Source: Malacoraja senta | Taxonomy: Eukaryota | Length of the DNA: 64,000 bases | Direction of reading: 5' to 3' | Assembly (NCBI GenBank): GCA_038087875.1 | Contig: JAXLNO010002062.1 | Span: 1 to 64,000 of the forward strand | Part shown: positions 1,730 through 37,169 of the stretch, piece after piece | How positions within the stretch are numbered: the first letter of the stretch is position 1 | Layout of the letters: each line of letters starts with the position of its first letter | Position numbers and translations under genes: made by a program | The notes under the pieces: model-generated | Told to the model about the DNA's origin: nothing | The model's database searches: none | Seen by the model: the letters and a program-made list of their open reading frames with translations, nothing else

Positions 1730-3091
1730 TTCGCCTTCCTAATCCACCATCATTCCTGTGCCCACGTCTAACACAACATCCTGCCTCAATGACTACAGAC
1801 CGATTGCCCTTACATCTGTGGCCATGAAGTCATTTGAGCGCATTATTCTCGCTCACCTCAAAACCAGCATTTCATCCAACATGGACCCACATCAATTCGC
1901 ATATAGAGCAAACAGGTCAGTAGAAGACACAGTCAACCTGGCCATCCATCACACACTGCAACACCTGGAAACTGCCAACACTTACGCCCGCATCCTGTTC
2001 ATGGACTACAGTTCGGCATTCAACTCCATCAACCCGGTCAAACTTTTCCATAAATTAACGGACATGAACATTGACCCCTGCGTCTGTCATTGGATCTATA
2101 GCTTCCTTTGGAACAGACAACAGAGGGTGAAGATACATAACACCATATCTCACCCTCTGCACCTCAGTACAGGAGCCCCTCAGGGTTGCGTCTTGTCACC
2201 CTGGTTATTCTCACTCTACACAAATCAACTCACATCCCAGTATAGTTCAGTTAAAATATATAAATACGCAGATGACACAACCATCATAGGTCTCATCTCT
2301 AACAACAACGAAACAGAATACCGCACTCAAACAAACAAAGCAGATAATAACCTCCTACTCAACACATCAAAAACACATGAACTTATCATTGATCTCAGAC
2401 GTAAGGCACAACCCAAGACCCCCCTACTCATCTCTGGCGAACCCATATCCACCACTGACTCATTCAAATTTCTTGGCACTCACATAAGCAATAACCTCAA
2501 ATGGAAAATCAATTCAGATCACATTTATAAAAAAGCCAACCAAAGACTTTTCTTTCTCCGTCAGCTCAAGAAGTTCAGAGTGAGGAAACATCTCCTAATC
2601 CGATTTTACACAGCCATCATCCAAAGCATGCTCACTTCATCAATAACAGTTTGGTACAGCAGTTTAGACACTCACTCCCGTAATAAACTACAGCGCATTG
2701 TCAACAAAGCATCCAAAATCATCAGCACTTCCCTCCCATCAATAGAATCACTCAATCTCAAACGGTCTGTGTCAAGGGTGAATAAAATAATTTCTGATCC
2801 CTCCCACGCAGCTCACCACATCTTCCACCTGCTGCCGTCAGGAAGGCGCTACAGCTCACTGCCCGCCAAAACATCACGACTTAAAAACAGTTTCTACCCA
2901 TATGCAATTCGAAATCTGAACACTCTATGACAACATCACATAGCCACCTCGTGCATGTACTGTATACTGTATGTTGTTGTGTTTTATGTTATGTTTGACA
3001 GGAATCAGCCTATTGTGTAACATCCTGTACTGAACATGAATTCCACCAGCTTGACTGTGTGGTCATTAAATAATCTGAATCTGAATCTGAA
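1730..3091 (+). mobile_element. 5'-truncated Rex1/Babar-type LINE with (CTGAAT)n tail
   Basis: RT ORF followed by a 3' UTR ending in TCTGAA repeats; interrupts the CR1 tandem array. Confidence 0.85.
1758..2930 (+). CDS. Reverse transcriptase, C-terminal part of Rex1/Babar LINE ORF
   Basis: YRPIALTS, GAPQGCVLSP, YADD, FKFLG and KKANQRLFFLRQL motifs; 390-aa open frame that is 5'-truncated. Confidence 0.88.
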   Translation: MPTSNTTSCLNDYRPIALTSVAMKSFERIILAHLKTSISSNMDPHQFAYRANRSVEDTVNLAIHHTLQHLETANTYARILFMDYSSAFNSINPVKLFHKLTDMNIDPCVCHWIYSFLWNRQQRVKIHNTISHPLHLSTGAPQGCVLSPWLFSLYTNQLTSQYSSVKIYKYADDTTIIGLISNNNETEYRTQTNKADNNLLLNTSKTHELIIDLRRKAQPKTPLLISGEPISTTDSFKFLGTHISNNLKWKINSDHIYKKANQRLFFLRQLKKFRVRKHLLIRFYTAIIQSMLTSSITVWYSSLDTHSRNKLQRIVNKASKIISTSLPSIESLNLKRSVSRVNKIISDPSHAAHHIFHLLPSGRRYSSLPAKTSRLKNSFYPYAIRNLNTL

Positions 3092-3396
3092 TAACAAGAG
3101 GAGTTGAGTACAGGAGCAAAGAGGTCCTTCTGCAGTTGTACAGGGCCCTGGTGAGACCACACCTGGAGTATTGTGTGCAGTTTTGGCCTGTTGGCCTTTA
3201 TAACAAGAGGAGTTGAGTATTGGAGCAAAGAGGTCCTTCTGCAGTTGTACAGGGCCCTGGTGAGACCACACCTGGAGTATTGTGTGCAGTTTTGGCCTGT
3301 TGGCCTTTATAACAAGAGGAGTTGAGTATTGGAGCAAAGAGGTCCTTCTGCAGTTGTACAGGGCCCTGGTGAGACCACACCTGAAGTATTGTGTGC
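3092..3396 (+). repeat. Tandem array (~3 units) of a 109-bp CR1 RT fragment
   Basis: TAACAAGAGGAGTTGAGTA recurs at about 3092, 3201 and 3310. Confidence 0.92.
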
Positions 3397-3436: not shown

Positions 3437-3853
3437 GGCGATTCATCCCCAACAACACTGCTCCGGATGGGTCAGTGTCAAGAGCCCTAGCAGGTCTCAC
3501 CTCTCTGTCTATCGAATTGGCTGAGAACTCTGGAGTAGACAACTCCTGGACTGGGTTTCTAGAATCCTGGTTTGGGAAATGGAAGCACTGCTTTACCTCA
3601 GCTCTAACATCAGTGGTAGTCATGGTGGGGTTACTGTGTTTGTTCGGATGTTGTATCATTCCCTGCGTACGGGGATTGGCTCAGCGATTGATAGAAACAG
3701 CCCTGACAAAGAACAGCGCTGCCACCATGATGGCCTTCAGAACACAGTATAACCAACGAGAGGGGGATAGGGAGGCGAAGAATCTGCTGCTAGCATTAGA
3801 AAAGGAAGATAGTATAAATCAAAGGTTGCGTAGCAAAAAAGAAAAGGGTGGAT
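3437..3853 (+). pseudogene. env: ERV env TM C-terminal fragment (duplicate of ~5980-6394)
   Basis: Near-identical to the downstream env (FIPNNTAPDGSVSRALAGL...CCIIPC). Confidence 0.92.
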
Positions 3854-4144
3854 TGTGAGGAAAGAGTTAACAGACATAGTTGATTTAGACTAGGGATAGA
3901 AAAATGGCTTGTGGTGTCAGCAGAAGCCAGACTGCTGGTAAAATAGAAAATAACGATATATAGAACAGAGAGAAATTCTAGATAAAAAGTAGCAAATTCA
4001 GCAGAAGATTTGAGGAGTAAGTAGAAAGGGAGAAAGTACATAAGGTCAAACATATCTGTGCATGCCTAATGAACTTACATGTATATGTACACACACCCAC
4101 TATGACAAGATGCCTCATTTAAATGCACATGCGATGCATGATAT
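3854..4144 (+). repeat. Partial ERV LTR (U3 portion only)
   Basis: Starts TGTGAG after a polypurine tract and matches 6395 to ~6680, then jumps into pol sequence. Confidence 0.88.
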
Positions 4145-4145
4145 A

Positions 4146-4445
4146 GAACTAAAATTAAAGGATTGCTGGCCCAGAGCCCACCACTGGACTTCCCGATACA
4201 CTCAGTCAAGGCTGGAGACTGGGTATTAATAAAAACGTGGAAAGAAGAAAAGCTGCAACCTAAGTGGACTGGACCCTACCTGGTGTTACTAATCACCGAG
4301 ACGGCAGTACGAACAAAAGAGAAAGGGTGGACACACGCAAGTCGAGTTAAGGGTCCTGTGGAGGCCCCACCAGACAATATCAGCCCGTGGACTGTGCGCA
4401 AAGGAGAGGAACCATTGACTTTAATATTTACCAAGAACCCGCGGG
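4146..4445 (+). pseudogene. pol: ERV pol 3' end (integrase C-terminal GPY/F domain)
   Basis: GDWVLIKTWKEEKLQPKWTGPYLVLLITETAVRTKEKGWTHASRVK is a typical class I ERV integrase tail. Confidence 0.9.
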
Positions 4446-4448
4446 AAA

Positions 4449-6424
4449 ATGAAGATTTTGTGTTGGTGGGTCGTGTGTTGGGTGGTTACCCAACTCGTGA
4501 GTAATATAACATGTATAAAAATCACAATACCACAGAATAGAAGGCCCACCACCATCCCATTTAATGTATGTAAAAGAAAATGGTGGTGTGGCTATAGAAT
4601 GTATGTATGCACCCATCCCTGTAGAAATTGGCACGCGGTGTTTACTTCATCAAAATATGGGTGGCATCGAACCACCTATCAAACTGATAGGTGGAAAATA
4701 TATCAAAACCCGAACGAGAAATTGCCAGGACGTATATATGTGAGCATACAGAGTGTTCAAATGCAGGAAAGTGGTAGGTATTGGATATGTGCAGATAGAA
4801 CAGGGAAGGACACATGTCTGAAGTTTGAGATAGAAGTGAAGCGGGATGGGGAGATGGTAAGATAAGAGAATAGGGGAAAGGTGTTGAAGATAGATGACAG
4901 TCAGAATAGGGATCCCGGGGCAACACCAGCACCACCGGTAGTCAGCAAAGTCACCAGGGAGAATGAGTCTAAGGATCTGAATATAATGATAGTAGAAGGA
5001 GAAACAGGATGAAGGCAGTTATATGAGAAGGGAATACCAACAGGGGGAAAAGGAGCCAACACCTGGCTTGCCTGGATGATGTACACAGCCAGAAGTATGC
5101 AACAAACCAATTGTTACACCTGCGCCGGAGCTAGGCCTCAGCTGGTCCCAGTACCATTTCCCCTGAATTGGAATAGAACACCTAGGGCTATGTCATGTAT
5201 ACTACAGCTATTCACGAATCCCCTCTTACCAAAGAATGTGATATGCCAGAGTTATCATTACCTATTTCCGACCAGCAACAACAATACGAAGGGCCGAAGG
5301 GAAGATCCTCGACCTCCTCCATTTACCAGTCCTCTTGGGGAGGAGGGATTTGAGTGTTATACCAGAAATAACCCAGAGGGACAGGATATGGGGAAGGTGC
5401 TCAACTGCAATCAGACGTATAACATAACGGCTGAGGAACAGGGACCACTGTTCAATAGCTCCTGGCTAAAAAAGCAGATAGTCAGTAGAGCCGATGTCTG
5501 GTGGTGGTGCGGGGAGAATACCCTGTGGCCCCGGTTACTGGGGTCATGGACGGGAACCTGTACCCTCACACAACTGATGATGCCCTTCACCATAGCAGTA
5601 GAACATGCTGTAGAACTCAATGACGGAAGCCAACGACAAAAGAGAGGGGTGAAAGGATCATTCGACACACACATATATATATAGATGCGATAGGGGTGAC
5701 AAGAGGGGTACCCGATGAATTCAAAGCCAGAAACCAGATAGCTGCGGGCTTTGAGTCCATGCTCTTCTGGTGGTCCACAATTAATAAAAATGTGGACTGG
5801 ATCAACTACCTATACTACAATCAACAACGCTTTATAAATTACACTCGAGATGCAGTTGAAGGATTAGCGGAACAACTGACAGCTACCAGCCAAATGGCCT
5901 GGCAAAATCGCATGGCCTTGGACATGCTACTGGCTGAGAAGGGAGGGGTGTGTGTAATGTTTGGCGAACAATGTTGCACATTCATCCCCAACAACACTGC
6001 TCCGGATGGGTCAGTGTCAAGAGCCCTAGCAGGTCTCACCTCTCTGACTATCGAATTGGCTGAGAACTCTGGAGTAGACAACTCCTGGACTGGGTTTCTA
6101 GAATCCTGGTTTGGGAAATGGAAGCACATCTTTACCTCAGCTCTAACATCAGTGGTAGTCATGGTGGGGTTACTGTGTTTGTTCGGATGTTGTATCATTC
6201 CCTGCGTACGGGGATTGGCTCAGCGATTGATAGAAACAGCCCTGACAAAGAACAGCGCCGCCACCATGATGGCCTTCAGAACACAGTATAACCAACGAGA
6301 GGGGGATAGGGAGGTGAAGAATCTGCTGCTAGCATTAGAAAAGGAAGATATAGTAGAAATCAAAGGTTGCGTAGCAAAAAAGAAAAGGGTGAATTGTGAG
6401 GAAAGAGTTAACAGACATGGTTGA
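4449..6424 (+). pseudogene. env: HERV-I-like ERV envelope with two in-frame stops and one frameshift
   Basis: Signal peptide; one frame 4449-5684 with TAA 4863-4865 and TGA 5010-5012; furin site RQKR; 2-bp slip in an (AT)n run near 5680; DAIGVTRGVPDEFKARNQIAAGFES; ISD QNRMALDMLLAEKGG; CX6CC; membrane anchor. Confidence 0.93.
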
Positions 6425-6948
6425 TTTAGACTAGGGATAGAAAAATGGCTTGGGGTGTCAGCAGAAGCCAGACTGCTGGTAAAATAGAAAATAACGATAT
6501 ATAGAACAGAGAGAAATTCTAGATAAAAAGTAGCAAATTCAGCAGAAGATTTGAGAAGTAGAAAGAGAGAAAGTACATAAGGTCAAACATATCTGTGCAT
6601 GCCTAATGAACTTACATGAATATGTACACACACCCACTATGACAAGATGCCTCATTTAAATGCACATGCGATGCATGATATGGGAGGTGTCTTTGACGTT
6701 GGGTGGACGTTCCAGGACGTTCTCGTGGGAATGTGGGCTTTATGTTATGATTGGAAGAAGCACAATGGGGATGGATGAGGGTGTGACAATGATACCCATG
6801 AAATGTATAAAGATAGAAGATATCCCGATCCTCGGTGTGCCTCTAGGGGACATCAGAGGAGAGGCACCGATTCTGCAGAATATGATTTAAATAAAAAGCT
6901 TCTTTGCCGACTTTGTCTCTAAAAGTGTTTGTGATTTTGCATCTCACA
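6395..6948 (+). repeat. ERV 3' LTR (554 bp)
   Basis: Preceded by PPT AAAAAAGAAAAGGG; perfect 6-bp terminal inverted repeat TGTGAG...CTCACA; AATAAA at 6890-6895. Confidence 0.9.
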
Positions 6949-14849: not shown

Positions 14850-16750
14850 TTTCACACTCACAAATAGGGGGAAGGTTACGATTCTTCCTAAAAGAATGGC
14901 AATCAATAACAAATGATTCATTTATTCTATGTAGCATTGTTGGATTCAAAATTGAGTTCTCTCCACTTTTGGATCCTCCAATTCAGCATAATTCAAACTG
15001 GTCACAGATTTTTTTCAAAGGAAGAGAATGGGTAGATCAAAGGAGAAATGAAAAATGTTATGCAGAAAAGGATGATATAAATGTCAGTAGAACAACACCA
15101 TCAGTTTGTGTCAAATATTCTCCTAGGAATATTCTCCTAGAAAAGGGATGGTGGACGTAGAATCATTTCCGATCTGACAAATCTTAACCTTTATGTACAA
15201 TAGAAACATTTCAAAATGGAAACATTTACTAATGCCATTTAGCTAGTCACAAAGAATTGCTACAAGGCAAGCATAGATCTGCAAAATGCATATTATTCTG
15301 TGGCAATGCATGGTAATGATCAAAGATATTTGAAATTTAGATGGATGAGTCAGTTATGGCAATTTAAAGCATTGCCCAATGGTCTGATTTCAGCACCAAG
15401 ATTATTCACTAAATTGCTCAAACCAATTTTAGCTCTGTTAAGAGCTGAGGGCCATGTATTAATGGCTTATTTAGATGATATCCTCATTGTAGGGGACACT
15501 TTGGCTGCTGCAAAATTGTCAGTATCCAGTCAAATACATTTTGAGAAATTAGGTTTCATTATTCACCTACAAAAATCTAAATTGTTACCAAGCAAAAAGA
15601 TTGATTACCTTGGGTTCACAATTAACTCCGAACACATGGTAATCACTTTGCCAAAAGATAAAAAGCTGCAGTTAATTGAAGGTTGCATAAAACTCATTAA
15701 CGAGGACACATCTTCAATTAGAGAAGTGGCAAGCTTGCTAGGCAAATTAATTGCAGGGTTTCCAGCGGTCACGTTTGGACCATTGCATTATCAATGTTTA
15801 CAGAGAGCTAAGGTACAAGCGTTAAAAATGAATAGAGGGCATTTTGATAGGCCCATGAAATTAACAATTCAATCCATTACAGAAATAGAATGGTGGATTA
15901 ACAATGTTTCTAATGCTTCCAGAAAAGTTCTGGTAGAAACACCTTCCGTCACTTGACAGACTGATGTAAGTGCGCTGAGTTGGGGCGCTACTAACATGAT
16001 TTCCAGCTGTGGAGGTAGGTGGAATGTGAATGAAGTACCTTTGCTGGAAAAACTGGGAATCAATTACCTAGAGCTATTAGGCGCATTTTACGGCCTTAGA
16101 GCTTATTGCACTGATATGGGAAATGTGCATGTTCAGGTACAGGTTGACAATACTACAGCTGTAGCATACATAAATCACATGGGTGGTATAAAATCAGAAT
16201 CATGTGATAAATTGGCAAATGAAATTTGGACCTGGGGTATTGCCAGAAAAATGTGGCTGTCAGCAATATTTACCAGGTAAAAATTAATACAATTGCAGAC
16301 AAAAGATCACATAAATTTAATGATAATACAGAATGGATGTTAAATCGGAAAATATTCACACAAATTATCACACAATTTGGAATGCCAGAAATTGATCTGT
16401 TTGCATCAAGATTGAACCACCAGTTGCCTAAGTATGTGTCATGGGAACCTGATCCTGGTGCAGTAGTGGTGGATGCTTTCTCGCTACATTGGGGTGGTAT
16501 GTTTCTGTATGCGTTTCCACCATTTTGTTTAATCCACAAATGCATACAGAAAATTAAACAAGATTCAGCCTCAGGGATTTTGGTAGTACCAGATTGGCCT
16601 ACACAGGTGTGGTACCCACTGGTGTTAAAAATGGGGGGAAAAAACCCAAAACCCTTATGGTTATTCCAAAGCAGATTAAACTGCTTGTACACCCTGTGAC
16701 TAATGAATCACATCCTTTACATAATCGTATTGGTTTGTTGATTTGCAGAT
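14850..16750 (+). pseudogene. DIRS-A pol (RT-RNaseH-adenine methyltransferase-like), disrupted
   Basis: FKALPNGLISAPRLFTK, YLDD, IDYLGF, TDVSALSWGA, INYLELL, DNTTAVAYINHMGG, DLFASRLNHQL and YAFPPF; stops and frameshifts including a short duplication near 15115-15140. Confidence 0.92.
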
Positions 16751-17738
16751 TCTAAGAAGGCCATATCTTGGAAAAAGATTATCAGACCGTACGGTGGATG
16801 TTATGACAGCAGCCTGGAGGAATAGTACCCAGAAGCAGTACATTTCATATATAAAGAAATGGGAGGTGTTTTGTTCAGGAAAGAATATTGCATATAACAC
16901 AGCAGAAATTTCAGATGTAATAGAGTTTCTTTCAACTCTACACTATGAATTGAAATTAAGTTATAGTGCAATTAATACTGCAGAAAGTGCACTCTCTGCA
17001 TATTTAAGCAGTGAATCAGAACAAACTCCAATTGGAGCACATCCTTGGGTCTGTAGGTTTATGAAAGGAATTTTCAACTCTAATCCTCCCAGACCCAGGT
17101 ATACAGAAATTTGGAATGTAAAAGATGTACTGATGTTCCTAAGGAATTGGAATCCAGTTGAAACTCTGTCATTATCCAAAATTACCATGAAATTGGTTAT
17201 GCTCATGGCATTAGTTTCAGCACAGAGAGTTCACACATTACAGAAACTCAGAATTGATAGAATGAAAGTAGGGCAAAATGCCGTGACATTCTATGTCTAT
17301 GATTTACTGAAGCAAAGTAGAGATGGGTCCACAGGATGCAAGTTGGAATTTTTAGCATATCCTACAGATTCACGACTGTGTGTAGTAACATATGTGAAAT
17401 GTTACATAGAAACAACAAAAGTTTTAAGAGGCGCCGAATTGGCATTTTTTATTAGTCATAAAAAGCCTCATAAGAAAGTGTCAACACAAACAATTTCACG
17501 ATGGTTGAAACAGGTGTTGAGATATTCAGGTATTGATACTGATAAATTTAAATCTCATTCCACCAGGGCGGCATCAACATCAGCGGCCAGGGATTCAGAC
17601 GTGCTAATAGACCTTATTCTCGTGGCCGCGGGATGGGCAAGTGAACAGATGTTTCACAAGTATTACCACAAGGAGATTAAAGATCTCAGAGGGTTTGGTG
17701 ATGCCGTGCTGGATACAGTATTAAATCCCCCATTATAA
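16743..17738 (+). CDS. DIRS-A tyrosine recombinase (open frame; first ATG 16803)
   Basis: 331 open codons; catalytic R (SAQRV), HSTR, AGW and YY motifs. Confidence 0.92.
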   Translation: MQILRRPYLGKRLSDRTVDVMTAAWRNSTQKQYISYIKKWEVFCSGKNIAYNTAEISDVIEFLSTLHYELKLSYSAINTAESALSAYLSSESEQTPIGAHPWVCRFMKGIFNSNPPRPRYTEIWNVKDVLMFLRNWNPVETLSLSKITMKLVMLMALVSAQRVHTLQKLRIDRMKVGQNAVTFYVYDLLKQSRDGSTGCKLEFLAYPTDSRLCVVTYVKCYIETTKVLRGAELAFFISHKKPHKKVSTQTISRWLKQVLRYSGIDTDKFKSHSTRAASTSAARDSDVLIDLILVAAGWASEQMFHKYYHKEIKDLRGFGDAVLDTVLNPPL

Positions 17739-23020: not shown

Positions 23021-26000
23021 ATGGATAAAGTTCCTTTCATGGAATGTGAATGGCTTGAACCATCCCATTAAGAGGATTTTTTTTAAAAGTTCTTCACAGA
23101 CTAAATGCTCAGATTATCTTTGTTCAGGAAACTCATGTAAGGCAAGATGACAAGTCACGATTTTTCAAGTTTTGGAGAGGACAGCAGTTTCATTCAAATT
23201 CACAGGCTAAGGGGAAAGGAGTCTCTATTTTTATCGACCCCTCAATTCCGTTTGTTCACCATGAAACAATTTCTGATCCATATAGCAGATTCTTGGTGAT
23301 TACCGGTGTCCTTTATAGGCAAAAAGTCACTATGGTGAATGTCTATGCACCAAATATTGATCACCCTGAGTTTTTTAAACAGTTAATTGTATCCTTTCCT
23401 AACTTAAATGAACACTTTTTAATAATGGGTGGAGACTTCAATTGCTGTTTGAATCCCTCGATTGATACGTCTACATCTGATCATGTGCTTCCAAATAAAT
23501 CAGCTAATTTTATTAATTCTTTTTTACTTGACTCGGGAATGTTAGAAATTTGGAGATTCTTACACGCAAATGACAAAGAATTTTCATTTTTCTCTCATGT
23601 ATATCATAATTATTCTAGGATCGACTATTTTATACTAGATTCTCGGCTAATTCCATTCGTCATTGCATGTGAGTATGATACAATTGCTATTTCTGATCAT
23701 GCACCAGTGAAACTATTGATCAAACTACCTGATTCCAAGTTTAGTGCTAAACAATGGCGATTTAATGCTACTTTGCTCCAAGACTTAAACTTTATTAAGT
23801 TTATGAAAGATCAGATTGCTTTTTACTTCTTGACAAACTCTAATGAAGAGATATCGAATGATATAGTTTGGGATGCTTTTAAGGCATATATTCATGGACA
23901 AATTATTTCATACTCCGCGGGATTAATAAAACAAACACAAAAAGAAATACGCACATTGGCTGACGAGATTAAAGAAATTGATAAAAAATATTCAAAAGCT
24001 CCTAGTTTAGAGCTCTATAAGAATAGTTGAACTTCAATTGAGATATGATTTGTTATTAGTATCACCGATTGAGAACCAGTTACTTAAAACCAAAAGTAAA
24101 TTTTATATAAATGGCAAAAATCTGGTAAATTACTTACTAATCAATTGAAAGCAGTGTCGGCCAAGAGTCAGATTACTAAAGTGAGTAAACGGGATGGTAC
24201 AGTAACTGTAGACCATGACGAAATTAATAAATCCTTTCAGGAATTTTATACCTCCCTATACCAATCAGATTTTCCTACTGATTCCAATATAATGCATGAG
24301 TTTTTAAAGAAACTGAACTTACCAAATTTACCATACAATGAGTCTCTGTTGTTAGATGAACCCATCACGGAAGAAGAAATACAGAGAGCAATTTTTTCAA
24401 TGAATTCTGGTAAAACACCCGGTTTAGATGGGTTTACAGTAGAATTTTTAAAGTATTTCTCAAATTTATTGTCTCCATGGCTATGCAAGGTATTTAAAGA
24501 AGCTTTTTTAAAGGAATAGATTACCACAATCTTTTTATGAAGCTTCTATTTCTTTAATTTAAAAAAAAGATAAAGACCCTACTGAAGTGACATCATATAG
24601 ACCTATATCAATGTTAAATGTAGATTTTAAAATTCTTTCCAAAATATTAGCTATGAGATTGGAAAAGATTTTACCGCAAATTATCTCTGAAGATCAGACA
24701 GGTTTTATTAAAAATCGTTACTCATTCTTTAATGTTAGGAGATTAATAAATATTGTATATACAGCGTCTAATAAAACCCCAGAATGTGTCATCTCACTTG
24801 ATGCCGAGAAGGCTATTGATAGAGTAGAATGGAATATTTATTCAATATACTTGAAAAAGTTAAGATTGGTCCAAAATTTATCTCTTGGATCAAACTGATA
24901 TATCTTATACCTCAGGCTTCTGTATTTACTAATAATCAGAGATCCCCTTTTTTCAGGCTCTTTCGAGGTACTAGACAGGGCTGTCCCTTAAGTCCTTTAC
25001 TATTTCATATTGCTTTGGAAACTTTAGCCACTGCTATTAGGGAATCCCCTAATATTTTTGGTATTGTCCGTGGGAATAAGACACATAAGCTATCTCTTTA
25101 TGCAGATGATCTGTTATTATTTATTTCTAACCCTGAGAAATCTATTCCGGCAATAGTAGCATTACTTAATCAATTCAGTAGTTTTTCTGGTTATAAACTA
25201 AATCTTAGTAAGAGTGAGCTTTCCCATTATATAATTTTGTTTCGAGTTATGGACAGTTTCCATTTAGATTGACTACCGAAAGTTTTACTTATTTAGGTAT
25301 TAAGATCACCAAGAAACACAAGGATTTATTTAAAGCTAATTTTATTCCTTTAATTGACCATATTAAACATCAGTTCACTAAATGGTCACCAATGTCCTTA
25401 TCCTTAATTGGCCGAATCAATGCTATTAAAATGCTCATTTTACCTAAATTTCTGTATTTATTTCAGACGATACCAATTTGTATTGCCAAATCTTTCTTTG
25501 ATATTATAGACTCTAAAATTTCTTCATATATATGGCAGAATAAAAATGCCAGACTAGGTAAAAAATACCTACAGAAATCAAAAAAAGTTGGTGGTTTGGC
25601 AATGCCGAACCTTAGACTCTACTATTGGGCAGTCAATGTTCGTTATTTAACATTTTGGACAAAAGATTTAGAAGATACCCAATGCCCTGGATGGATAAAC
25701 CTAGAACGTGATTCCTTACAAGGGCTATAATTGGCTTCTATTCTAGGGACCTCGTTACCTTTTACAATTACGAGATTGAATAAATATATGACGAACCCAA
25801 TAATAAGACATACGTTCCGAATACGGTTTCAATTTCATAAGTTTTTTGGACTATCTGATTTTATCCAAATTTCTCTTCCAACCATCTAGTACTGATCAAG
25901 TTTTTTTGTTATGGAAGAGGAAGGGATTAGTAGCTTTTTGTGATTTGTTTTTGGAGGGTTGTTTTATGTCTTTCGAACAACTCTCCAATAACTTACCTAA

Positions 26001-26684: not shown

Positions 26685-29287
26685 CTAGTCAGGTTCCTGT
26701 GCTGAACCATTCTGACCCTTTAAATAATCAATAAAGGGAGACAATGTTCCAACGAATAATTCCTGTTTGTCCAACAGGGAAAATCTGATTATTTCCACGT
26801 TTAAGGTCTCCGTCATTTCTATAATCCACATTTTGATTGTGGGGGTTATAGGGCCTTTCCAAAATTTTAGAATTAATTTTTTTCCCGTTATTATACTATA
26901 ATCAATAAAGTTTCTTTGTGTTGTTTTAAATGTTTGATTTAATTCTAATGTTCCGAGTATTATTAATTTTGGATCCGGGTCCAATTGTGTGCTGGTCACT
27001 TTAGATATTATACTGAAAATATTTACCCAGAATTTTTTTATTTTTATACAGTTTGCAAACATATGAGATAAGTTAGCTTCTAAATGTTGACATTTATCAC
27101 ATATAGGTGAGATATGTTGAAAGATTTTATGTAATTTTGTTTTTGAATAATGTAACCTATGTATTACTTTAAATTGTATTAATGAATGTCTGGCATTTAA
27201 TGAACATTGATGTATGTGTTGTAAACTTTCTTCCCAAGTATCTTTCGTTATTATTTGATTTAATTCTTTTTCCCATGTTTGTCTGTGTAAGTCCGTCGAT
27301 GGAATGTCACTGTCTAATAAAATATTATATATATAAGATATTAATTTTTCTGTATTAGGATGTTTATTCCAACATTCGTCAAGAATTTCTGAATTTCTAA
27401 TTCGAAAATTTTGAGTATTCGATTTTACATAATCTCTGAGTTGAAGATATCTGAAAAAATCATTTCCTTGAAGTCCATAAGTCTGTTGCAACTCCTGAAA
27501 TGTCAGAAAGGTGCCTTCCTTGTAAAGTTGTCCCATATTTTTAATTCCATAATTCTTCCATTGTGTAAAACCCCTGTCCAACCATGAGGGCTTAAACAAA
27601 GGGTTATTCACAATTGGAAGAAAAAGTGATAAATTATCTAATTTTAATGTCTTTTTTAATTGTTTCCAAATTCGTATAGCACTAAATATTATAGGGTTTT
27701 CCTACAATTTTTTTTGTTTAATTTAGACGTAGCAAATAATATCGAGCCGATATCAAAAGGTAAACAATCTTCCTTTTCCATTTTTAACCAATCTAGTTGT
27801 TGATCTATTTCTTCCAACCAGAAATTCATATTTTTAATATTAACTGCCCAAAAATAAAACAGAAAGTTGGGTAAAACCAAGCCTCCATTTATTTTTGATT
27901 TACACAAATGTCTTTTATTTATCCTATGATTCTTATAATCCCAGATAAAATCATTAACAATGGAATCCAATTTTTTAAAAAAGTTTTTTGACAAATATAT
28001 CGGAATTGTCTGAAAAAGGTATAATATTTGCGGTAAAAAAATCATTTTTATGGCATTAATTTTGCCAACCATTGAGATAGGAAGTGTTTTCCAATATTGA
28101 ATATTCTTATGTAGTTTGTTCAGTAATGGGGGGAAATTTGCTTTAAATAATGATGTATATATCTTAGTTACGTAAATGCCTAGGTATTTAAATTTTTCGT
28201 TTACTATTTTAAATGGAAATTGTTGTATTATCTGTTTGTTGTGTTCCCTTATTGGCATAATTTCACTTTTATTCCAATTTATTCTGTATCCTGAGAGTGA
28301 ACCAAATTGGGTTATTAGCTTTAATAAGTTTGGAATACTAATTTCTGGTTTTGTAATGTAAATTAGTACATCATCTGCGTATAGAGAAATTTTATTCACT
28401 GTGTCCTTTGTGTTATACCCATGTATTTCCGGATGACCCCTAACTCTTTCTGCGAGTGGCTCAATAGCAAGCGCAAATAATAATGGAGATAACGGGCATC
28501 CTTGTCTACAACCTCTAGATAGGCTGAATTTAGATGACAACCTTTGGTTTGTTAATATTCTAGCCGTAGGGTTTGTATATAACAGTTTTATCCATGTGCA
28601 GAATTTCTCCCCTAGCTGCATATTTTCCATCACCGAAAATAAATAAGACCATTCAACCTGATCAAATGCTTTTTCAGCGTCAAGTGAGATTATTGCTAGA
28701 TCTTCATTAATAATTCTCTTAGAATAAATAATATTAAATAATCTTCTTAGATTATAATATGAGTACCGTTTCTGAGTAAAGCCTGTTTGGTCAGGGTGTA
28801 TTAATTTATTCATCACTGTACTTAATCTATGCGCTAGTATTTTAGTTAATATTTTCTGATCTGTATTTAAAAGTGCAATTGCTCTATATGATCCCGGATC
28901 GTCCGGATCTTTATCAACTTTAGGAATAAGTGTTATTATAGATTCATTTAAAGTATCTGGAAGTTTCTGTTGAGTATAGATATGCTCATACAGCCTTTGT
29001 AAACGTGGGGAGAGCAAGTCATAATTTTTTTTATAGAATTCAGAGCCTAAACCATCTGGTCCTACTGCTTTACCATTTTTTAAAGAGCCAATAGACTCCT
29101 CAATATCCTTTATCGTAATCTCCCTTTCTAATAATTCTCTATCGTTTGAATCTAAACCTTTTAAATTACATTTTAGTAAAAAATCTGCTATTCCTTCTGG
29201 TTGTACTACAGTTTTAGTTGAATAAAGATTATGATAGTATTGGAGAAATCTTTCGTTTATATCCTTGGGCATTTTTAATAATTCTCC
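26685..29287 (-). pseudogene. L1-X ORF2, 3' part (RT and CCHC domain), frameshift near 27690
   Basis: ORFs 27689-29272 and 26685-27611: YRAIALLN, RQGCPLSP, YADD, CDKC...HMFANC. Confidence 0.92.
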
Positions 29288-29718
29288 TGTCTCTGTTCTA
29301 ATTTTTTTTTTTTTTTAATTTTTATTTATTAGAAGTACATTACATCACAGCCACATACATTAATACTCGTCATTTATATCTTCTTACAATTAATGTACTC
29401 CCTTTATTTTTTTTTTACGCTAAAGAAAGAAAAGATTGAAAGAGAGAAGAAAGTGAAGGAAAAAGTGCAAGTGTAGAAAAGTGTAGAAAATGTAACAACA
29501 AAAAAAAAAAAGGACGAGGACCCTATGAAAGCGAAATTAAAAACAAAAAAAAAAAGAGTTAAGAAATAGGCCCTAAGAAAAGAAAAGAGAGAGAGAAAAA
29601 AAGAAAAACAAATGTTTTTTTTTTTTGAGCATCACGTAAATAGGACATACCAACTCTTCAACTATCATCCCCCCTTACCCGACCTCAATTTTTTATTTTT
29701 TTAAAGTACTTTTGCACC

Positions 29719-32700
29719 CTATGTTTGTAATAATTCTATAAATGCAGACCACGTCAGGTGGAAGTGATCTGGTTTACCTGCTAGGAGGAGTCTTATCTCT
29801 TCAAGGTGTAGTGTTTCAAACATATTTGAAATCCACATATTTATAGTTGGTATTGGAGCCTTCTTCCAAAATTTTAGAATTAGCTTTTTTCCAGTTATTA
29901 ACCCATAATCCATTAATTTCTTTTGAAACACATTTAGTTCTGGATCATCTTCCGTTATTCCGAAGATAATCCATTCTGCTTTGGGTATCAGTCTTGTTTT
30001 AAATAACTTTGTAAAAATTTCAAAAATTTCATTCCAAAATTTTTGAATTTTTGTACAGAAGACAAATGAGTGCGCTATAGTTGCTTCTTGGGATTGACAT
30101 TTATCACAAATAGATGATACGTTTGGGAAAATTTTATGAATTTTAGTTTTCGAATAATATAATCTATGTAAAATTTTAAATTGTATTAAAGTGTGTCTTA
30201 CATTAATCGAGCATTTATGTACTTTTAATAAGTATTCATTCCAACTTTCCTTTGAAATTTTAATAGCTAACTCTTGTTCCCAGTCTCTTCTGATACCCTC
30301 CGTAGATGGTATTTGTACATTTAAGATAATATTGTACAAATATGATATTAAGTTTGCTGATTCCGCTTTTGTCTGCATTGCCTCGTCCAGTACATCTGCT
30401 GGGTTATTATGATGATCTTTTATATATTTTTTCAAATAGTCGCATATTTGAAAGTATTTAAAATATTGATTATTTCCGAGTTTATATTTTATTTGTAATT
30501 GTTGAAATGAAAGTAATTTTCCAGTTTCATACAAGTCACCAAGCGTTTTAATTCCTAGTCTATCCCATTGTGTATAAGCTTTATCTATAATAGAAGGACT
30601 AAACGAAGGGTTATTGACTATAGGTAATAAAAGTGATAAGTTTCTTAATTTTAAATTTTGTTTTATTTGTTTCCAAATACGGATTGTACTATGAATAATT
30701 GGGTTCTTATTATAGTTTATGTTATTCAATTTCATTGGAGAGAGGAGGATCGCTCCAATGTTTCTAGAGGAGCAATCCTCTTTCTCCATTACAATCCAGT
30801 CTACTTGCTGGGCGGAGTTATCCATCAGTTGAATCATGTTTTTAATATTTACTGACCAATAATAATACATAAAATTGGGTAGTGCTAGACCTCCCAATAC
30901 TTTAGATTTATTCAGATGGGTTTTTTGTATTCTATGTGATTTATAGTCCCATATAAAATTAGTGATATCTGAGTCGAGTTTTTTAAAAAACTTCTTAGGT
31001 AAGTATATAGGAATTGATTGAAATAGGTATAAAATTTGTGGTAAAAAGATCATTTTTATTGCGTTTATTCGGCCTATTAAAGACATCGGAAGCGTTTTCC
31101 AGAATTTAATTAATGTATTCAGTTTATTAAGTAGGGGGTCAAAATTTGCCCTGAGCATACCTTGATATGCTCTGGTAATTTCGATTCCCAAATATTTAAA
31201 TTTTTCTGTAGCTATTTTAAAAGGGAATTTTAAAAGATGTGTTGAATCTTTCGGTTTTATTGACATAATTTCACTTTTATTCCAATTTATTCTATATCCA
31301 GAAAAAGATCCGAAGTCTTCAATTAAATTTAATATATTTGGTATAGTGATTTGAGGTTTTGTAATATACAATAATATATCATCCGCGTATAAAGATATTT
31401 TATTATATGAGTCTTTAGTATTATATCCATGAATATCAGGGTGTATTCTAATTTTTTCTGCTAGCGGTTCAATAATGAGAGCAAACAGCTGTGGTGATAA
31501 TGAGCATCCTTGTCTATTTCCCCTTGATAGTTGAAATTTCGAGGATAATATGTTATTAGTAAGTATTCTAGCTGTAGGTTTGTTATATAGTAACTTAATC
31601 CATAAAATAAAATTCTCTCCCAGTTGAAATTTTTGTAATACTTTATCCATATAATTCCATTCTACTTGATCAAATGCTTTTTCAGCATCCAGCGAAATAA
31701 TTGATAATTCTTGATCTTCAGATTTGTGTGAGTGCATTATGTTGAGTAGACGTCTCATATTATTAGAAGAGTATCTCTTAGGGATAAACCCTGTCTGATC
31801 TGGGTTTATTAATTTACTAATGTATTTACTTAATCTTCTGGCTAATGTTTTCGCTAATATTTTTTGATCTGTGTTTAACAATGCTATAGCTCTATATGAG
31901 CCAGGATCTTCTAAATCCTTATTTTTCTTAGGTATTAATGTAATCGTTGATTCCGCTAATGTATCAGGTAGTATTCGTTTTTTAAAAGCGTATTGGTACA
32001 TTTTTTGTAATCTTGGTATTATTTTTTCATAAAAGTTTTTATAAAATTCATTAGTAAATCCATCAGGGCCTGGTGTTTTTCCATTTTTTAGTGAGTTTAT
32101 TGTATCTTCTAATTCCTTAATTGAGATTTGTGCACCCAGTTCCTCTTGTTCCTTCAGCTCTAACTTTGGAAGATTACAGGTATCCAAGAACTTTGTGATA
32201 TTATTGGAATCAATTATCGTTTTAGATGTATACAAATTCTCGTAAAATTGCGCAAATCTTTTATTAATATCCTTCGGTGTTGTTAATAATTCCCCTTTAT
32301 CTGATTTGATCTTTGGTATAGTATGTTCCTTTTCTCGTTTTTTTAGCTGGCGAGCCAAAAGTTTATGCGGTTTATCCCCAAATTCAAAGTGCTCTTGTTT
32401 TGTAATTTGAAAAAGTCTTATAAGTTTGGCAGATAATAATTTATTTAATTTAAATTTTAAAATTATTATTTTATTATGTTTATCTATTGTTGGATCTTTA
32501 GCATTATCTATATCCATTTGTCTAATAAGTTCTTCTAACTGTCTTTGTTCATTCTTATTCTTTTTATTTTGAAAAGCTTGATATGAAATTATAATACCCC
32601 TAATGTATGCTTTAAAAGATTCCCAAAGTAAAGTAGGCGATATATCTGAAGTATCATTTGTTTGAAAAAAGACCTCCATTTGTTCTTTTAAATATATACT

Positions 32701-33510
32701 CGCTTGTGGATCTTTTAAAATTTGAGAGTTAAATCTCCAGAATGAATTATTCTTAGACAATCCTTCCAGTTTTAAAAAGAAAGTTAGTGGAGAATGGTCT
32801 GAAATTGAATTTGTATGATATATTGCATTAGATGTTTGGGGGATTAATTTTGTATCCAGCAGAAAGTAGTCTATACGTGAGTATGTCTTATGTACCATTG
32901 AGTAAAACGAATATTCCCTGCCAGTTGGGTTCACAATTCTCCAAACATCTGCTATATTAGTGTTGTTTATGTAGGTATTGAGGAGTTCCCCAGTTTTCGA
33001 TTTCATATTCCCTCTCTGTTTTTGACTTGATTTATCTAAGTACGGGTCTAAAACACAATTAAAGTCTCCGCCTATTATAACATTTTGATAGTTTGACTCT
33101 GCAATTATATTGAAGATTTTATTGAAAAAGTGGGGGTTATCAAAGTTAGGGGCATATATATTTACCAAAGTAAGTGGAGTGTCATGGATTTCTCCATTAA
33201 CTATTAGGTATCTCCCTTCTATATCTGTTATAATATTCTTTGCTTTAAATGGTATACCTTTTCTTATGATAATTGACGTGCCTCTAGATTTTGAAGTGAA
33301 TGAAGAGTGGTATGTTTGACCTATCCATTTCGCCCTCAGCCTAACTTGGTCCTGAGGTTTTAGGTGTGTTTCTTGTAGGAAGGTAATGTCAGAATTATAC
33401 ATTTTTAGCTGAGCTAATATCTTACCCCTTTTGATAGGTTCATTAATGCCTCTTATATTCCAACTACAAAATGAGACTCCTCCTAGGTTCTTTTGTGTGG
33501 TGTCATGCAT
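29719..33510 (-). CDS. L1-Y ORF2 (APE endonuclease, RT, CCHC), 1263 aa
   Basis: SWNIRG, LQETH, GGDFN, SRIDY, SDH; RQGCSLSP, YADD, FKYLG; CDKC-x8-H-x4-C; no stops. Confidence 0.97.
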   Translation of the reverse strand: MHDTTQKNLGGVSFCSWNIRGINEPIKRGKILAQLKMYNSDITFLQETHLKPQDQVRLRAKWIGQTYHSSFTSKSRGTSIIIRKGIPFKAKNIITDIEGRYLIVNGEIHDTPLTLVNIYAPNFDNPHFFNKIFNIIAESNYQNVIIGGDFNCVLDPYLDKSSQKQRGNMKSKTGELLNTYINNTNIADVWRIVNPTGREYSFYSMVHKTYSRIDYFLLDTKLIPQTSNAIYHTNSISDHSPLTFFLKLEGLSKNNSFWRFNSQILKDPQASIYLKEQMEVFFQTNDTSDISPTLLWESFKAYIRGIIISYQAFQNKKNKNEQRQLEELIRQMDIDNAKDPTIDKHNKIIILKFKLNKLLSAKLIRLFQITKQEHFEFGDKPHKLLARQLKKREKEHTIPKIKSDKGELLTTPKDINKRFAQFYENLYTSKTIIDSNNITKFLDTCNLPKLELKEQEELGAQISIKELEDTINSLKNGKTPGPDGFTNEFYKNFYEKIIPRLQKMYQYAFKKRILPDTLAESTITLIPKKNKDLEDPGSYRAIALLNTDQKILAKTLARRLSKYISKLINPDQTGFIPKRYSSNNMRRLLNIMHSHKSEDQELSIISLDAEKAFDQVEWNYMDKVLQKFQLGENFILWIKLLYNKPTARILTNNILSSKFQLSRGNRQGCSLSPQLFALIIEPLAEKIRIHPDIHGYNTKDSYNKISLYADDILLYITKPQITIPNILNLIEDFGSFSGYRINWNKSEIMSIKPKDSTHLLKFPFKIATEKFKYLGIEITRAYQGMLRANFDPLLNKLNTLIKFWKTLPMSLIGRINAIKMIFLPQILYLFQSIPIYLPKKFFKKLDSDITNFIWDYKSHRIQKTHLNKSKVLGGLALPNFMYYYWSVNIKNMIQLMDNSAQQVDWIVMEKEDCSSRNIGAILLSPMKLNNINYNKNPIIHSTIRIWKQIKQNLKLRNLSLLLPIVNNPSFSPSIIDKAYTQWDRLGIKTLGDLYETGKLLSFQQLQIKYKLGNNQYFKYFQICDYLKKYIKDHHNNPADVLDEAMQTKAESANLISYLYNIILNVQIPSTEGIRRDWEQELAIKISKESWNEYLLKVHKCSINVRHTLIQFKILHRLYYSKTKIHKIFPNVSSICDKCQSQEATIAHSFVFCTKIQKFWNEIFEIFTKLFKTRLIPKAEWIIFGITEDDPELNVFQKKLMDYGLITGKKLILKFWKKAPIPTINMWISNMFETLHLEEIRLLLAGKPDHFHLTWSAFIELLQT

Positions 33511-34316
33511 TTTGAATAATTATAGTACCTTTGAATCTTGTGGTGCGTCCATATCCCAGGTCTTTAGGTATTGGGGGAGTTTTTGAATTGTTAACTTTTG
33601 TTGGTATGTCCATATTATTCTTATCACTAAACACAAAACACAAACAAGTGATTTTATGTAATAAAAAAAAAACTAAAAGAGTGAGGCTACAGTGTCTATA
33701 GTCGGCACTGTAGCAAGTGACCCACCTGTAGGTGGGGAAAAACCTTATTTTGACTTCCATTGCGTTGTTGCTCAACTCGCTCCGCTCTCTTAGTTAATCA
33801 TAACATATTAAAATATTAAAACGAGGCCTCACATTCATATATATAATACAATTTTACCCTGATATTTCCTTATAACATATATATATATCAGAGTTTAATT
33901 ATTAAACCAATATTTTTGATTTCAATAAGAATCAGCTGTTGGTTGAAGGGGTTAACGAGACGTGCTCCTGGACATAAGCCAGGAGCTCGTTTCTCATCCC
34001 CTCCTCCTGCTTATAGACAAGGTTACAATTTATTAAAAATTCATATTAGTATGTTAGTTCATTATTTTTTTTGTTTTTTTTGTTAGTATTCTAATCTAAC
34101 CTGCATAACTTTTAAAGTTGTTAATAGGATAAGTTCTTACAATTGGTTATAACATTTTAATCAATAAGCAATTATTTTCTAATTCATATCCCGTTATAAA
34201 GTTGTTTACACGTTTTGAACAGAAAATGTCCTTGCTTCAACATTCCGGAGATAACAGTGTAACTATCCCCAGACAAAACATAGCTGAGAATTATTCGGAT
34301 CTGCCAAAGCTCCCTT

Positions 34317-35387
34317 TTATTTCTGTCTTTCAACAATCGTTTGGGCATATTTGAAAGCGTCTTCAGGCTTAACAAATGACTTTTCAAGACCATTAAAAGA
34401 AATACGCATTTTAGCGGGATAAAAAACCCCGAATCTGACCCCTTCTCTCCCTCTTAAAAGATCTTTAACCTTATCAAATTTGTTTCTTTTTTGCACAATT
34501 TCATGTGGGTAGTCCCTGAATATCTTAATAGTGTCTTTGTCCAGCCGTAATTGTACACCATATTTGATATGGGTCATAACATATTCCAGTTCTGCAGTAT
34601 CTCGAAATTTCACTATAATATGTCGTGGATAAGCTTTTCCCGCATCAAATCTTTTTCCAAATCTTGGGACACGATGAGCCACTTCGATTTTCGGTTCCTT
34701 GGGAAGATTCAACAGTTGTTTCAACAAGCCCATGGCAAATTCACGTACCTGTTCCCCTTCTGCCCCCTCTGAAACACCAAGAATCCTCAGATTCTGGCGT
34801 CTAGAACGAGCTTCCAGGTCCAGGCATTTGAATGAGACTTTCTCTAATTGAGTCCCCATTTGTAGTGATGCTTGTTCGTTTTCTCGCCTCATTTGCTCAT
34901 GTTCTTGCCTCAGTTTCGCCATGTCTTCAACAAGTCGTGCCGTATTTTTCTCCAATTCCGTGATTGTCTGCATACTTGCAGCTACTGTTTCAAGTACAGC
35001 CGTGAACTTATCCGTAGTAATTACATCCATCTTATCCATTTTCTCTGATAGTCCATCTTTCACCTCATCAATTCGTTTATTCATAGTGTCCAGTAAATCC
35101 GTCATATTCTTCTGGTTACCAGCATTTAAATCCTTCATCATCTTCTGCATTCCTTCCATCATTTTTGCCGAATTTTCCTTCATTTCCTTCTTATCTTCCA
35201 CCCTATTATCCGAGATCTCATCTTTCAAATTTTTTATTGATTTTTTCAAGTCATCAAAGTCTTTCTTAGATCTTGTATCCATTTCTGCAGCCACTTCAGA
35301 GACTTCAGAGGTAACTTCAGTTTCGAACTGTTTCGACAGTTTATTCACAGCTCTCTGAGGGCTCACAGCTGGAGTCAATTTACTCAT
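34317..35387 (-). CDS. L1-Y ORF1 (coiled coil, RRM, CTD), 356 aa
   Basis: RSRRQNLRILG, AHRV, PRHIIVKF, IFRDYP and FYPAKMRI motifs. Confidence 0.95.
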   Translation of the reverse strand: MSKLTPAVSPQRAVNKLSKQFETEVTSEVSEVAAEMDTRSKKDFDDLKKSIKNLKDEISDNRVEDKKEMKENSAKMMEGMQKMMKDLNAGNQKNMTDLLDTMNKRIDEVKDGLSEKMDKMDVITTDKFTAVLETVAASMQTITELEKNTARLVEDMAKLRQEHEQMRRENEQASLQMGTQLEKVSFKCLDLEARSRRQNLRILGVSEGAEGEQVREFAMGLLKQLLNLPKEPKIEVAHRVPRFGKRFDAGKAYPRHIIVKFRDTAELEYVMTHIKYGVQLRLDKDTIKIFRDYPHEIVQKRNKFDKVKDLLRGREGVRFGVFYPAKMRISFNGLEKSFVKPEDAFKYAQTIVERQK

Positions 35388-35596
35388 TTAAAGGGCTTCA
35401 AACCACCGTTTAAAACATCGCGTTTAACGATGACGTCATCAGCGCGGTAACCAGAAGCTCCGGTAAGGTTTTTAAAAACAATCCCGATTTTCGGACCCGT
35501 TTTACACGATAAATCGTGAAGTTTTTCGGGAGAGGAGCTGGGTGCACGTCTGTTAGTCTAACATGACGCCACCGGAAGTGTCTCTGTTCTAATTTT

Positions 35597-36789: not shown

Positions 36790-37169
36790 ATTGTTTCTAA
36801 GGTGGTCTATAACCGAGCAGAAGGTGCAACACATAAAACCTGACCCTGCTCCCGAACCTCGAATAGATGAATTTAAAATCATATACATCGCTCTTCCGAA
36901 CACATCTCCTTGAATTAGTCTTGTTGTTCCATTCAAACATTAAGTTATAAAAATATTTAAAGTGAAAAAAGTGATAGAATTGGTTAGTATAGGGTGAAAG
37001 AAAAAAAACTACATCTACAATTAGTGTAGTTAGTGATAGCCACACTAACGTGGCTAGAATTCTAAAGACTTCCGTAGCCTTTGTAAAAAAAAAATTCCCA
37101 GCTCTGTGCCCGAAAAAAAAAAGAAAGAATATTTCTGACAATCAATTAACTTCTTTGGGAGTAGCAAAC

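Follow-up and report, generated by a model that had tools for sequence, protein, structure and literature searches.

A predicted IgV receptor-binding domain of probable CD300/pIgR-like ancestry in a broken gamma-type env of Malacoraja senta

A truncated env gene in the window

The window (the whole stretch of DNA analysed here, 64,000 nucleotides) contains at positions 3441–6948, on the forward strand, the remains of an endogenous retrovirus (ERV). A frame at 4449–4862 (+) encodes 138 residues, among which all the SU N-terminal motifs quoted in a preliminary description of this DNA are present, and closes with a TAA stop at 4863–4865. It represents the start of a gamma-type env, cut off by the stop after 138 codons, with the integrase C-terminus of pol upstream (Pfam MLVIN_C, E 4.5e-11) and TLV_coat downstream (Pfam, E 8.4e-12). 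The features of the element are:

3441–4144, +: near-identical duplicate (96–99%) of 5980–6681, made of the 3' part of TM and the first 290 LTR bases (3854–4144), joined directly to the pol end
4145–4504, +: 3' end of pol, integrase C-terminal domain, its frame overlapping the env start (Pfam MLVIN_C; blastn to other copies)
4449–4514, +: env start codon and probable signal peptide, residues 1–22 (hydrophobic stretch recognized by eye, cleavage site deduced)
4515–4850, +: IgV-like receptor-binding domain (RBD-C, EnvP(b)1 type), residues 23–134 (sequence profiles and predicted model)
4863–4865, +: premature in-frame stop TAA directly after the domain
4866–5012, +: Pro/Thr-rich linker, closing with a second in-frame stop TGA (5010–5012)
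5013–5684, +: SU C-domain with CXXC (5112–5123) and furin site RQKR (5634–5645), its frame broken in a CA/TA dinucleotide run near 5660–5684
5624–6424, +: TM frame with an immunosuppressive-domain-like stretch (5903–5929), CX6CC (5951–5977) and membrane anchor (Pfam TLV_coat)
6395–6948, +: 3' LTR (TG...CA) preceded by a polypurine tract, 92% identical to the LTR of another copy

The layout is that of RBD-C, with an N-terminal SU domain (23–134), then a Pro-rich linker and then a CXXC at residue 222. The marks of gamma-type Env (CXXC in SU, the basic cleavage site RQKR, the immunosuppressive-domain-like stretch and CX6CC in TM) are all present, scattered over broken frames in the window copy and in a single frame in natural copies. 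By position and homology, the domain would bind a cell-surface receptor. Stops at 4863 and 5010 and the frame break near 5660–5684 interrupt the window env, and this copy is most likely dead. In place of a 5' LTR and gag, the upstream side carries a duplicate of about 700 bases covering the TM end and LTR start; given this tandem-like duplication, the element appears to be a rearranged, env-centred remnant devoid of gag and of a full 5' LTR.

Elsewhere in the window there are LINE pieces at 29722–33519 (−), 27692–29314 (−), 34320–36939 (−), 23059–24027 (+) and 1743–2930 (+), among them an open 1266-codon endonuclease-RT frame. At 15243–17735 (+) an RT frame is followed by a tyrosine-recombinase frame, which we take to be the remnant of a DIRS-like retroelement. 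Tandem arrays whose repeat units measure 30, 109 and 103 bases occupy 244–791, 3091–3396 and 63353–63992, respectively, and a run of N spans 62620–63066.

An abundant and young ERV family

The ERV family of the window is abundant and young. A genome search with the domain gave 150 scored matches out of 578 candidates, at 69–100% identity, and the paired LTRs are 93–99.5% alike in the fetched stretches that contain both. Fourteen of the 150 scored copies lie in open frames of 657–694 codons. Of 14 longer stretches fetched from the genome, some contain gag-pol-env, while internal deletions in others have spared env. Residues Y52, C54, W61, G119 and D121 are invariant in the 31–35 copies covering them, and pN/pS in the domain is about 0.4 (eight open-frame copies, the pairs not being independent). 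A word-indexed homologue search for longer proteins gave one match among 15 candidates, a family member 90% identical. Assembled contigs from three of four sequencing runs of other organisms (the kind of run being uncertain) cover the domain and are mostly 90–99% alike.

Several deleted forms were encountered. Internally deleted proviruses of about 4.5–6.9 kb (L021, L023, L024, L026–L028) show no long gag or pol frame, yet their env is open throughout; non-autonomous copies with env alone seem to be common in the family. In another subfamily (L029–L031) a deletion has removed env between about codon 95 and the TM end, with LTRs 97–99.5% alike where both were seen. In contigs of runs X2 and X15 the end of pol is followed directly by that of TM (window 4422–6182), 1759 env bases being skipped; these contigs would represent either a deletion copy or a spliced form.

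The position of the premature stop, directly after the domain and with signal peptide and RBD intact, could be read as the sign of a protein reduced to a secreted RBD, comparable to the soluble FeLIX RBD, that the host has co-opted and maintains to block or assist related viruses. Soluble RBD-C does work in trans, according to the available part of a preprint (bioRxiv 2024.03.17.585361), and one other fetched copy shares the frame end of the window ORF. However, the open frames of the 150 scored copies end at many places, from 100 to 694 codons, the ORF is not preceded by a complete 5' LTR, and in the domain it is 99% identical to copies whose frame continues, which leaves no separate constraint visible. 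We regard co-option of this ORF as highly improbable.

Searches with the window domain alone

The preliminary description proposed that the SU N-terminus resembles an Ig-V domain of the CD300/pIgR family, and suggested V-set profiles and structure prediction as checks. The first check gave nothing for the window sequence itself: the domain alone matched no Pfam family at E≤10, and hence no V-set, and a PDB sequence search with it produced two hits, neither of them an Ig chain. Against a profile of 17 host CD300-like domains it scored 6.5 bits, which 8 of 1000 shuffles also reach, and hhalign against a 24-row alignment of host CD300-like domains gave a probability of 0.7%. A search of 1.84 billion proteins returned seven hits, namely one family member, one wrasse protein and five bacterial repeat proteins. 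The wrasse protein (P0004), which has five V domains, was the best non-self match and aligned in register, at an E of 3e-7 that sums five repeats; the next five were bacterial propeller repeats. As a query against the host genome, P0004 had no match. A profile including P0004 (21 bits for the window domain) was dropped as circular and the host-only profile mentioned above used instead. For the window sequence alone, the V-set/CD300 signal is weak and not significant; at the level of family profiles and in the predicted fold, the likeness is clearly non-random (see below).

Homology to the EnvP(b)1 receptor-binding domain

Using the SU-C/TM part of a natural copy as query, we found 511 relatives, 120 of them listed; sharks, teleosts, frogs, birds, a marsupial and primates are among those listed. 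The primate relatives are EnvP(b)1 orthologues (gibbon row P0031, E 3e-99). We built an HMM from env N-termini, leaving out the window sequence and the two sequences most similar to it, and on this HMM the window domain scored 37 bits end to end. We then compared with the PDB a profile (A1) consisting of the window domain, two copies and 61 relatives, with three primate EnvP(b)1-like rows included, no host rows, and two V-set-positive envs excluded. Its best match was the EnvP(b)1 RBD 6W5Y (E 1.1e-22, over the N-terminal part), and no Ig chain was listed at E≤10 in this search, made with the full-length alignment. In a tree of SU-C/TM (68 rows, 408 columns, LG+G4), which lacks an outgroup and therefore gives no direction of transfer, the window family is sister to P0016 (98/93), a bearer of the same kind of N-terminal domain, inside a group (88/90) that holds the primate rows. 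Given the env HMM score, the profile match to 6W5Y and this placement, the window domain belongs by inheritance to the EnvP(b)1-type RBD-C class, in a form with shortened loops.

These data also bear on the idea that the window family, or a near ancestor, recently captured a CD300-like domain of its host in replacement of an older RBD. Such an event would be in keeping with the small size of the domain and its scarcity of loops, which recall a host V domain, with W112, which matches CD300, and with the very large CD300-like cluster of the host. The scores of the window domain, 37.7 bits on the env RBD profile versus 6.5 on the host profile, nevertheless largely refute it. Moreover, the domain has the env-specific F-[DN]-x-C, W61 and W72, the sister env P0016 (98/93 for SU-C/TM) has the same kind of domain, and no host-gene-level match appeared among the 150 scored of 578 genome candidates, all 69% or more identical. 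A recent capture is thus very unlikely.

Predicted fold

An AlphaFold2 model obtained from A1 (env rows only) has eight strands, with a pLDDT of 87.9 and a pTM of 0.80, and predicts an IgV sandwich for the window domain. Foldseek ordered its matches as 6W5Y (TM 0.73), pIgR D2, CD300a (0.73), CD300lf, TIM-3 and NKp44. With VIA-align against 997 chains, the best Z was that of CD300a (12.2, rmsd 2.5, 102 aligned), followed by 6W5Y (11.9, rmsd 2.6, 112 aligned) and, further down, CD300lf (11.5), TREM2 (11.2), CD33 (11.1) and PD-1 (11.0). Against 48,161 representatives, ranks 1–8 were taken by 6W5Y (Z 11.9, rmsd 2.6, 112 aligned) and then CD300lf (11.3, rmsd 2.5, 98 aligned), CD300a (11.0), teleost and human pIgR (10.8) and TREM2 (10.6). 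This second check, in which EnvP(b)1 comes first and CD300, pIgR and TREM2 follow, agrees with the preliminary proposal. Unrelated IgV domains (CD33, PD-1, butyrophilin) reach Z 10–11 versus 11–12 for CD300 and, as the margins between IgV families are only about 1, the fold alone does not pick the donor. A search of a viral fold library gave generic viral Ig proteins and added nothing to the PDB result. MLV and FeLV structures were not among the matches listed in the three fold searches, an absence that is uninformative.

Host V domains resembling the env RBD

A V-set search of the host genome found one CD300-like exon; starting from it, we located a cluster of CD300/pIgR-like V exons (G000:C5:650000–1770000, L085–L114) that holds most of 150 scored matches out of 205 candidates. 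In one subgroup of the cluster, Ser replaces both C-C' cysteines. The host genome also has V-J-joined light-chain-like exons, which, with the sharks among the close env relatives, point to a cartilaginous fish as host. In L065 (from 4543 downward, − strand, G000:C2:99.86 Mb) an antigen-receptor-like V domain starts a 1968-codon open frame with no intron break after V in the first 200 residues, the part viewed.

For profile comparisons, 24 of 30 fetched CD300-like loci were aligned (A2; pIgR, CD300 and secretory component account for its first 16 PDB hits), and 17 host CD300-like domains were chosen by the C-strand Cys motif. Control sets from the same genome, labelled by eye or by query, comprised 28 antigen-receptor V, 11 butyrophilin-like, 14 Siglec-like and 12 mixed domains. 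Aligned with hhalign, the env RBD columns matched the 17-domain CD300-like profile with a probability of 96.4% (E 1.3e-9, 81 columns), and the controls over 23–29 columns at 12.1% (antigen-receptor V), 8.7% (IgL-like), 1.6% (TCR-like), 3.6% (butyrophilin-like) and 8.8% (Siglec-like). The value was still 95.6% without the window family, 95.7% with the motif-unfiltered 24 rows of A2 and 86.6% (E 4.5e-6) with the full-length A1 alignment. Reversed controls stayed below 1%, and the highest score in 100 column shuffles was 17.7 versus 48.1 for the real columns. The E-F-G half gave 93–94% with CD300-like and 37% or less with controls; the A-D half reached only 14–26% in register and under 2% out of register. 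Among the host sets compared, only the CD300-like one aligned in register over both halves.

Single domains gave the same picture, all 17 CD300-like ones scoring 24.1–42.8 against the env RBD and all 65 others 23.3 or less (20–21 for three TIM-like domains). On the CD300-like profile the env profile scores 54 and other host V-set families 27–49. Fifteen of 75 env N-termini exceed 5 bits on the CD300-like HMM, against 1–3 on other host HMMs and none when reversed. These host profiles are shallow (Neff 2.5–4.9) and derive from one genome, with TREM, NKp44, Fc-mu-R and CD8/CD2-type families outside the comparison; among the host V-set families compared, profile evidence supports a specifically CD300/pIgR-like env RBD.

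RBD-C could instead stem from another, or a generic, IgV gene and resemble CD300/pIgR by convergence, the second disulfide and the F-G Gly-x-Asp having arisen twice. We consider this unlikely. The Z-scores are indeed nearly tied across IgV families, identities are 15–19% with a weak single-sequence signal, and several V-set families lie outside the profile comparison, but the in-register match of both halves is restricted to CD300-like domains, TIM-like domains score no better than Ig or TCR even though their C-C' region is Cys-rich too, and the env profile is as close to the CD300-like one as other host V-set families are.

Disulfides, tetrad and the CD300 cleft

The canonical Cys columns of the window domain are occupied by F38 and I113, so that, by sequence, the B-F disulfide is lost. 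The first column is F in 37/61 env relatives and the second L in 39/61; host CD300-like rows have the canonical Cys in 24/24 and 22/24. The one-residue offset of the F-strand Cys noted in the preliminary description is real, as the D-x-G-x-Y-x-C register puts the canonical position at I113, beside C114. Reading C114 as a slipped Ig cysteine was rejected, this column being Gly in 49/61 env relatives; it is also Gly in 17/24 host rows. On the B strand, hhalign pairs C41 and not F38 with the host Cys, and the register therefore rests on spacing and on the strand limits of the model. The extra cysteines are 41, 47, 114 and 123, which probably pair as C114-C123 and C41-C47.

The Tyr/Trp/Trp/Asp tetrad and the C-strand disulfide are recognized by sequence columns as Y52, W61, W72 and D121, and C54 and C58. 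The C-strand Y-x-C...C occurs in 49/61 env relatives and 18/24 host CD300-like domains versus 0/53 Ig/TCR, butyrophilin-like and Siglec-like domains, the F-G loop Asp in 40/61 and 15/24, and the whole set (Y52, C54, C58, D121) in 34/61 and 14/24. Tyr-x-Cys...Cys, a C' Thr, a D-strand Arg, an E-F Asp and the F-G Gly-x-Asp-Pro are common to env and host CD300-like domains.

In CD300lf, as described in the available part of PMC6166816, the phosphocholine cleft has Tyr34, Cys36-Cys44 and Trp89 as its floor, and Lys94, Gly96 and Asp98 hold calcium. The spacings Tyr34/Cys36 and Trp89/Lys94/Gly96/Asp98 are repeated in the window domain by Y52/C54 and W112/R117/G119/D121; G119 and D121 lie at the same distance from W112 as Gly96 and Asp98 from Trp89, so that the Gly-x-Asp of the calcium site is present by sequence. 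With residues and spacings shared, the Tyr and Asp of the RBD-C tetrad are probably those of the CD300 cleft, while its two Trp are probably viral additions (the W61 column is Leu/Val in host CD300-like domains). W112 is shared with only 1/61 env relatives, and part of the extra CD300 likeness of the window family may therefore be secondary. The C-C' loop has 3 residues, not 7 as in CD300lf, and the Gln41/Arg42 wall of the choline pocket is without counterpart. The short loop makes an intact choline pocket doubtful in the window domain.

Other envs with V-set heads

Scanning 74 relatives for V-set domains gave five matches at E≤0.5, one of which (P0024, 30.2 bits) passes the cut-off. Two other envs, P0106 and P0140, retain both canonical Cys and a KYWC-type strand. 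On the env RBD HMM these three, each a single record, reach about 0, and on the CD300-like HMM 13–15 bits. P0024 also scores 18.7 bits on the butyrophilin-like and 14.2 on the antigen-receptor HMM and, as these do as well, no single donor family can be picked for it. PDB sequence hits of P0106 and P0024 to pIgR, CD300a and other Ig chains were not significant (E 0.01–0.7). In the full-length P0106 model the N-terminal domain is poor (pLDDT 30–55), and the V-domain assignment of P0106 and P0024 thus relies on sequence.

In the SU-C/TM tree, P0024 and P0106/P0140 fall into two separate groups among RBD-C-bearing envs. Grouping the V-set-headed envs together was rejected (AU p 0.0007), in a test on 30 of the 68 rows with the mixture off and made after the first tree had been seen. 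Independent captures and module exchange both fit, and the occurrence of more canonical V domains on separate branches hints at repeated capture. According to the available part of bioRxiv 2024.03.17.585361, no other kind of RBD was found among CXXC-bearing Env; P0024, P0106 and P0140 are CXXC-bearing gamma-type envs with V-set heads, a kind reported there as absent.

Comparison with known receptor-binding domains

The comparisons with published systems below draw on the available parts of the sources cited. The EnvP(b)1 RBD (6W5Y; PMC7683403; bioRxiv 2024.03.17.585361) occupies the same place in SU as the window domain, is homologous at family level and is its top Foldseek match; both lack the B-F disulfide and have the Tyr/Trp/Trp/Asp tetrad, the C-strand disulfide and a short F-G loop. 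The window domain differs in its size (112 versus 154 residues), in the near absence of the VRA, VRB and VRC loops, in having only 3 residues between C54 and C58, in the extra Cys 47, 114 and 123, and in the presence of the second tetrad Trp (W72), reportedly missing from EnvP(b)1. With the V domains of CD300/CMRF35-like proteins and pIgR (2Q87, 5FFL/5OR7, 5F1S, 1XED), the predicted model shares the IgV fold (TM 0.70–0.77), and the sequence shares Y-x-C...C, the C' Thr, the D-strand Arg, [DE]-x-G-x-Y and the F-G loop G-x-D(-P). Unlike them, the window domain is without the canonical B-F disulfide, has two added Trp and is fused to a fusion protein and not to a signalling tail.

The RBD of MLV/FeLV (1AOL, 1LCS; PMC12051499) is likewise described as an extended IgV, and its tetrad spacing (Tyr119/Cys121, Cys141/Trp144) equals that of Y52/C54 and C58/W61, but it has long variable loops and an extra N-terminal strand. 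This link rests on partial TLV_coat alignments and publications. The alpha-like Env-Dbi (bioRxiv 2024.03.17.585361) also bears a host IgV domain, SIRP-like, at the SU N-terminus; that capture is recent and mammalian, with the B-F disulfide kept and an Env without CXXC, whereas that of the window domain would be old and degenerate, in a CXXC-bearing Env.

Origin of the domain

We think it likely that the window stretch encodes the signal peptide and predicted RBD of a broken gamma-type env, and that this RBD, an inherited RBD-C of EnvP(b)1 type with a predicted IgV sandwich, descends from a V domain of the CD300/pIgR family that an ancestral retrovirus captured in the distant past. Ancient, clade-wide descent, and not capture by the window family, most likely accounts for the likeness, because the B-F disulfide was lost while Tyr-x-Cys, the C-C' disulfide and Gly-x-Asp were kept. 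The preliminary description had left the choice between a captured and a convergent domain, and between an ancient and a coincidental likeness. The Ig-V likeness itself holds, in the predicted sandwich and, among the host V-set families profiled, for CD300/pIgR specifically; ancient capture is favoured, capture by the window family itself is not (an inherited RBD-C, 37 bits on the env HMM), and coincidence is disfavoured by the family-level profile match against shuffled controls.

In the scenario we propose, a piece of host mRNA would have recombined between the signal peptide and the SU C-domain. The core B-F disulfide would then have been replaced by hydrophobic residues (F38/I113), with the C-C' disulfide, its Tyr and the F-G loop Asp retained as a scaffold over which two Trp (61, 72) were added. 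Receptors may have changed through the loops, lengthened in EnvP(b)1 and more so in MLV, and shortened in the window family. By analogy with what is known of gamma-type Envs, binding of the domain to a receptor on the cell surface would, in the infectious ancestor, have set off the SU-TM fusion machine, linked through CXXC/CX6CC.

A wider proposal, for which we see the chances as evenly balanced, is that the gamma-type RBD as a whole (in EnvP(b)1 and fish, amphibian, bird and shark ERVs, and in MLV/FeLV by published homology) is a captured CD300/pIgR V domain. The conserved tetrad would be a relic of the CD300 calcium/phospholipid cleft, and the first RBD therefore a lipid- or Ig-binding attachment head; in CXXC-bearing envs, fresh host V domains would have entered this slot on two or more further occasions (P0024; P0106/P0140).

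That gamma-type RBDs fold like Ig domains has been published before, and the locus itself is an ordinary dead copy. RBD-C has been published as IgV-like, with its donor gene called 'unidentified' and a vertebrate IgV origin uncertain, and the available part of that preprint (bioRxiv 2024.03.17.585361) does not mention CD300 or pIgR. In the openly available literature searched, with the preprint taken in its posted form and without its supplements, we found no paper linking RBD-C to a CD300/pIgR origin. What is likely new is the family-level sequence evidence for CD300/pIgR-like receptors as the source of RBD-C, together with a residue link to their ligand cleft.

The window family provides a stripped-down RBD-C that bridges the gap and makes both a named donor family (CD300/pIgR) and an ancestral function (the calcium/lipid cleft) testable. 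If true, this origin would explain the conserved surface patch of leukaemia-virus RBDs, so far without an assigned origin, and would mean that retroviral receptor-binding heads have repeatedly been taken from host immune receptors.
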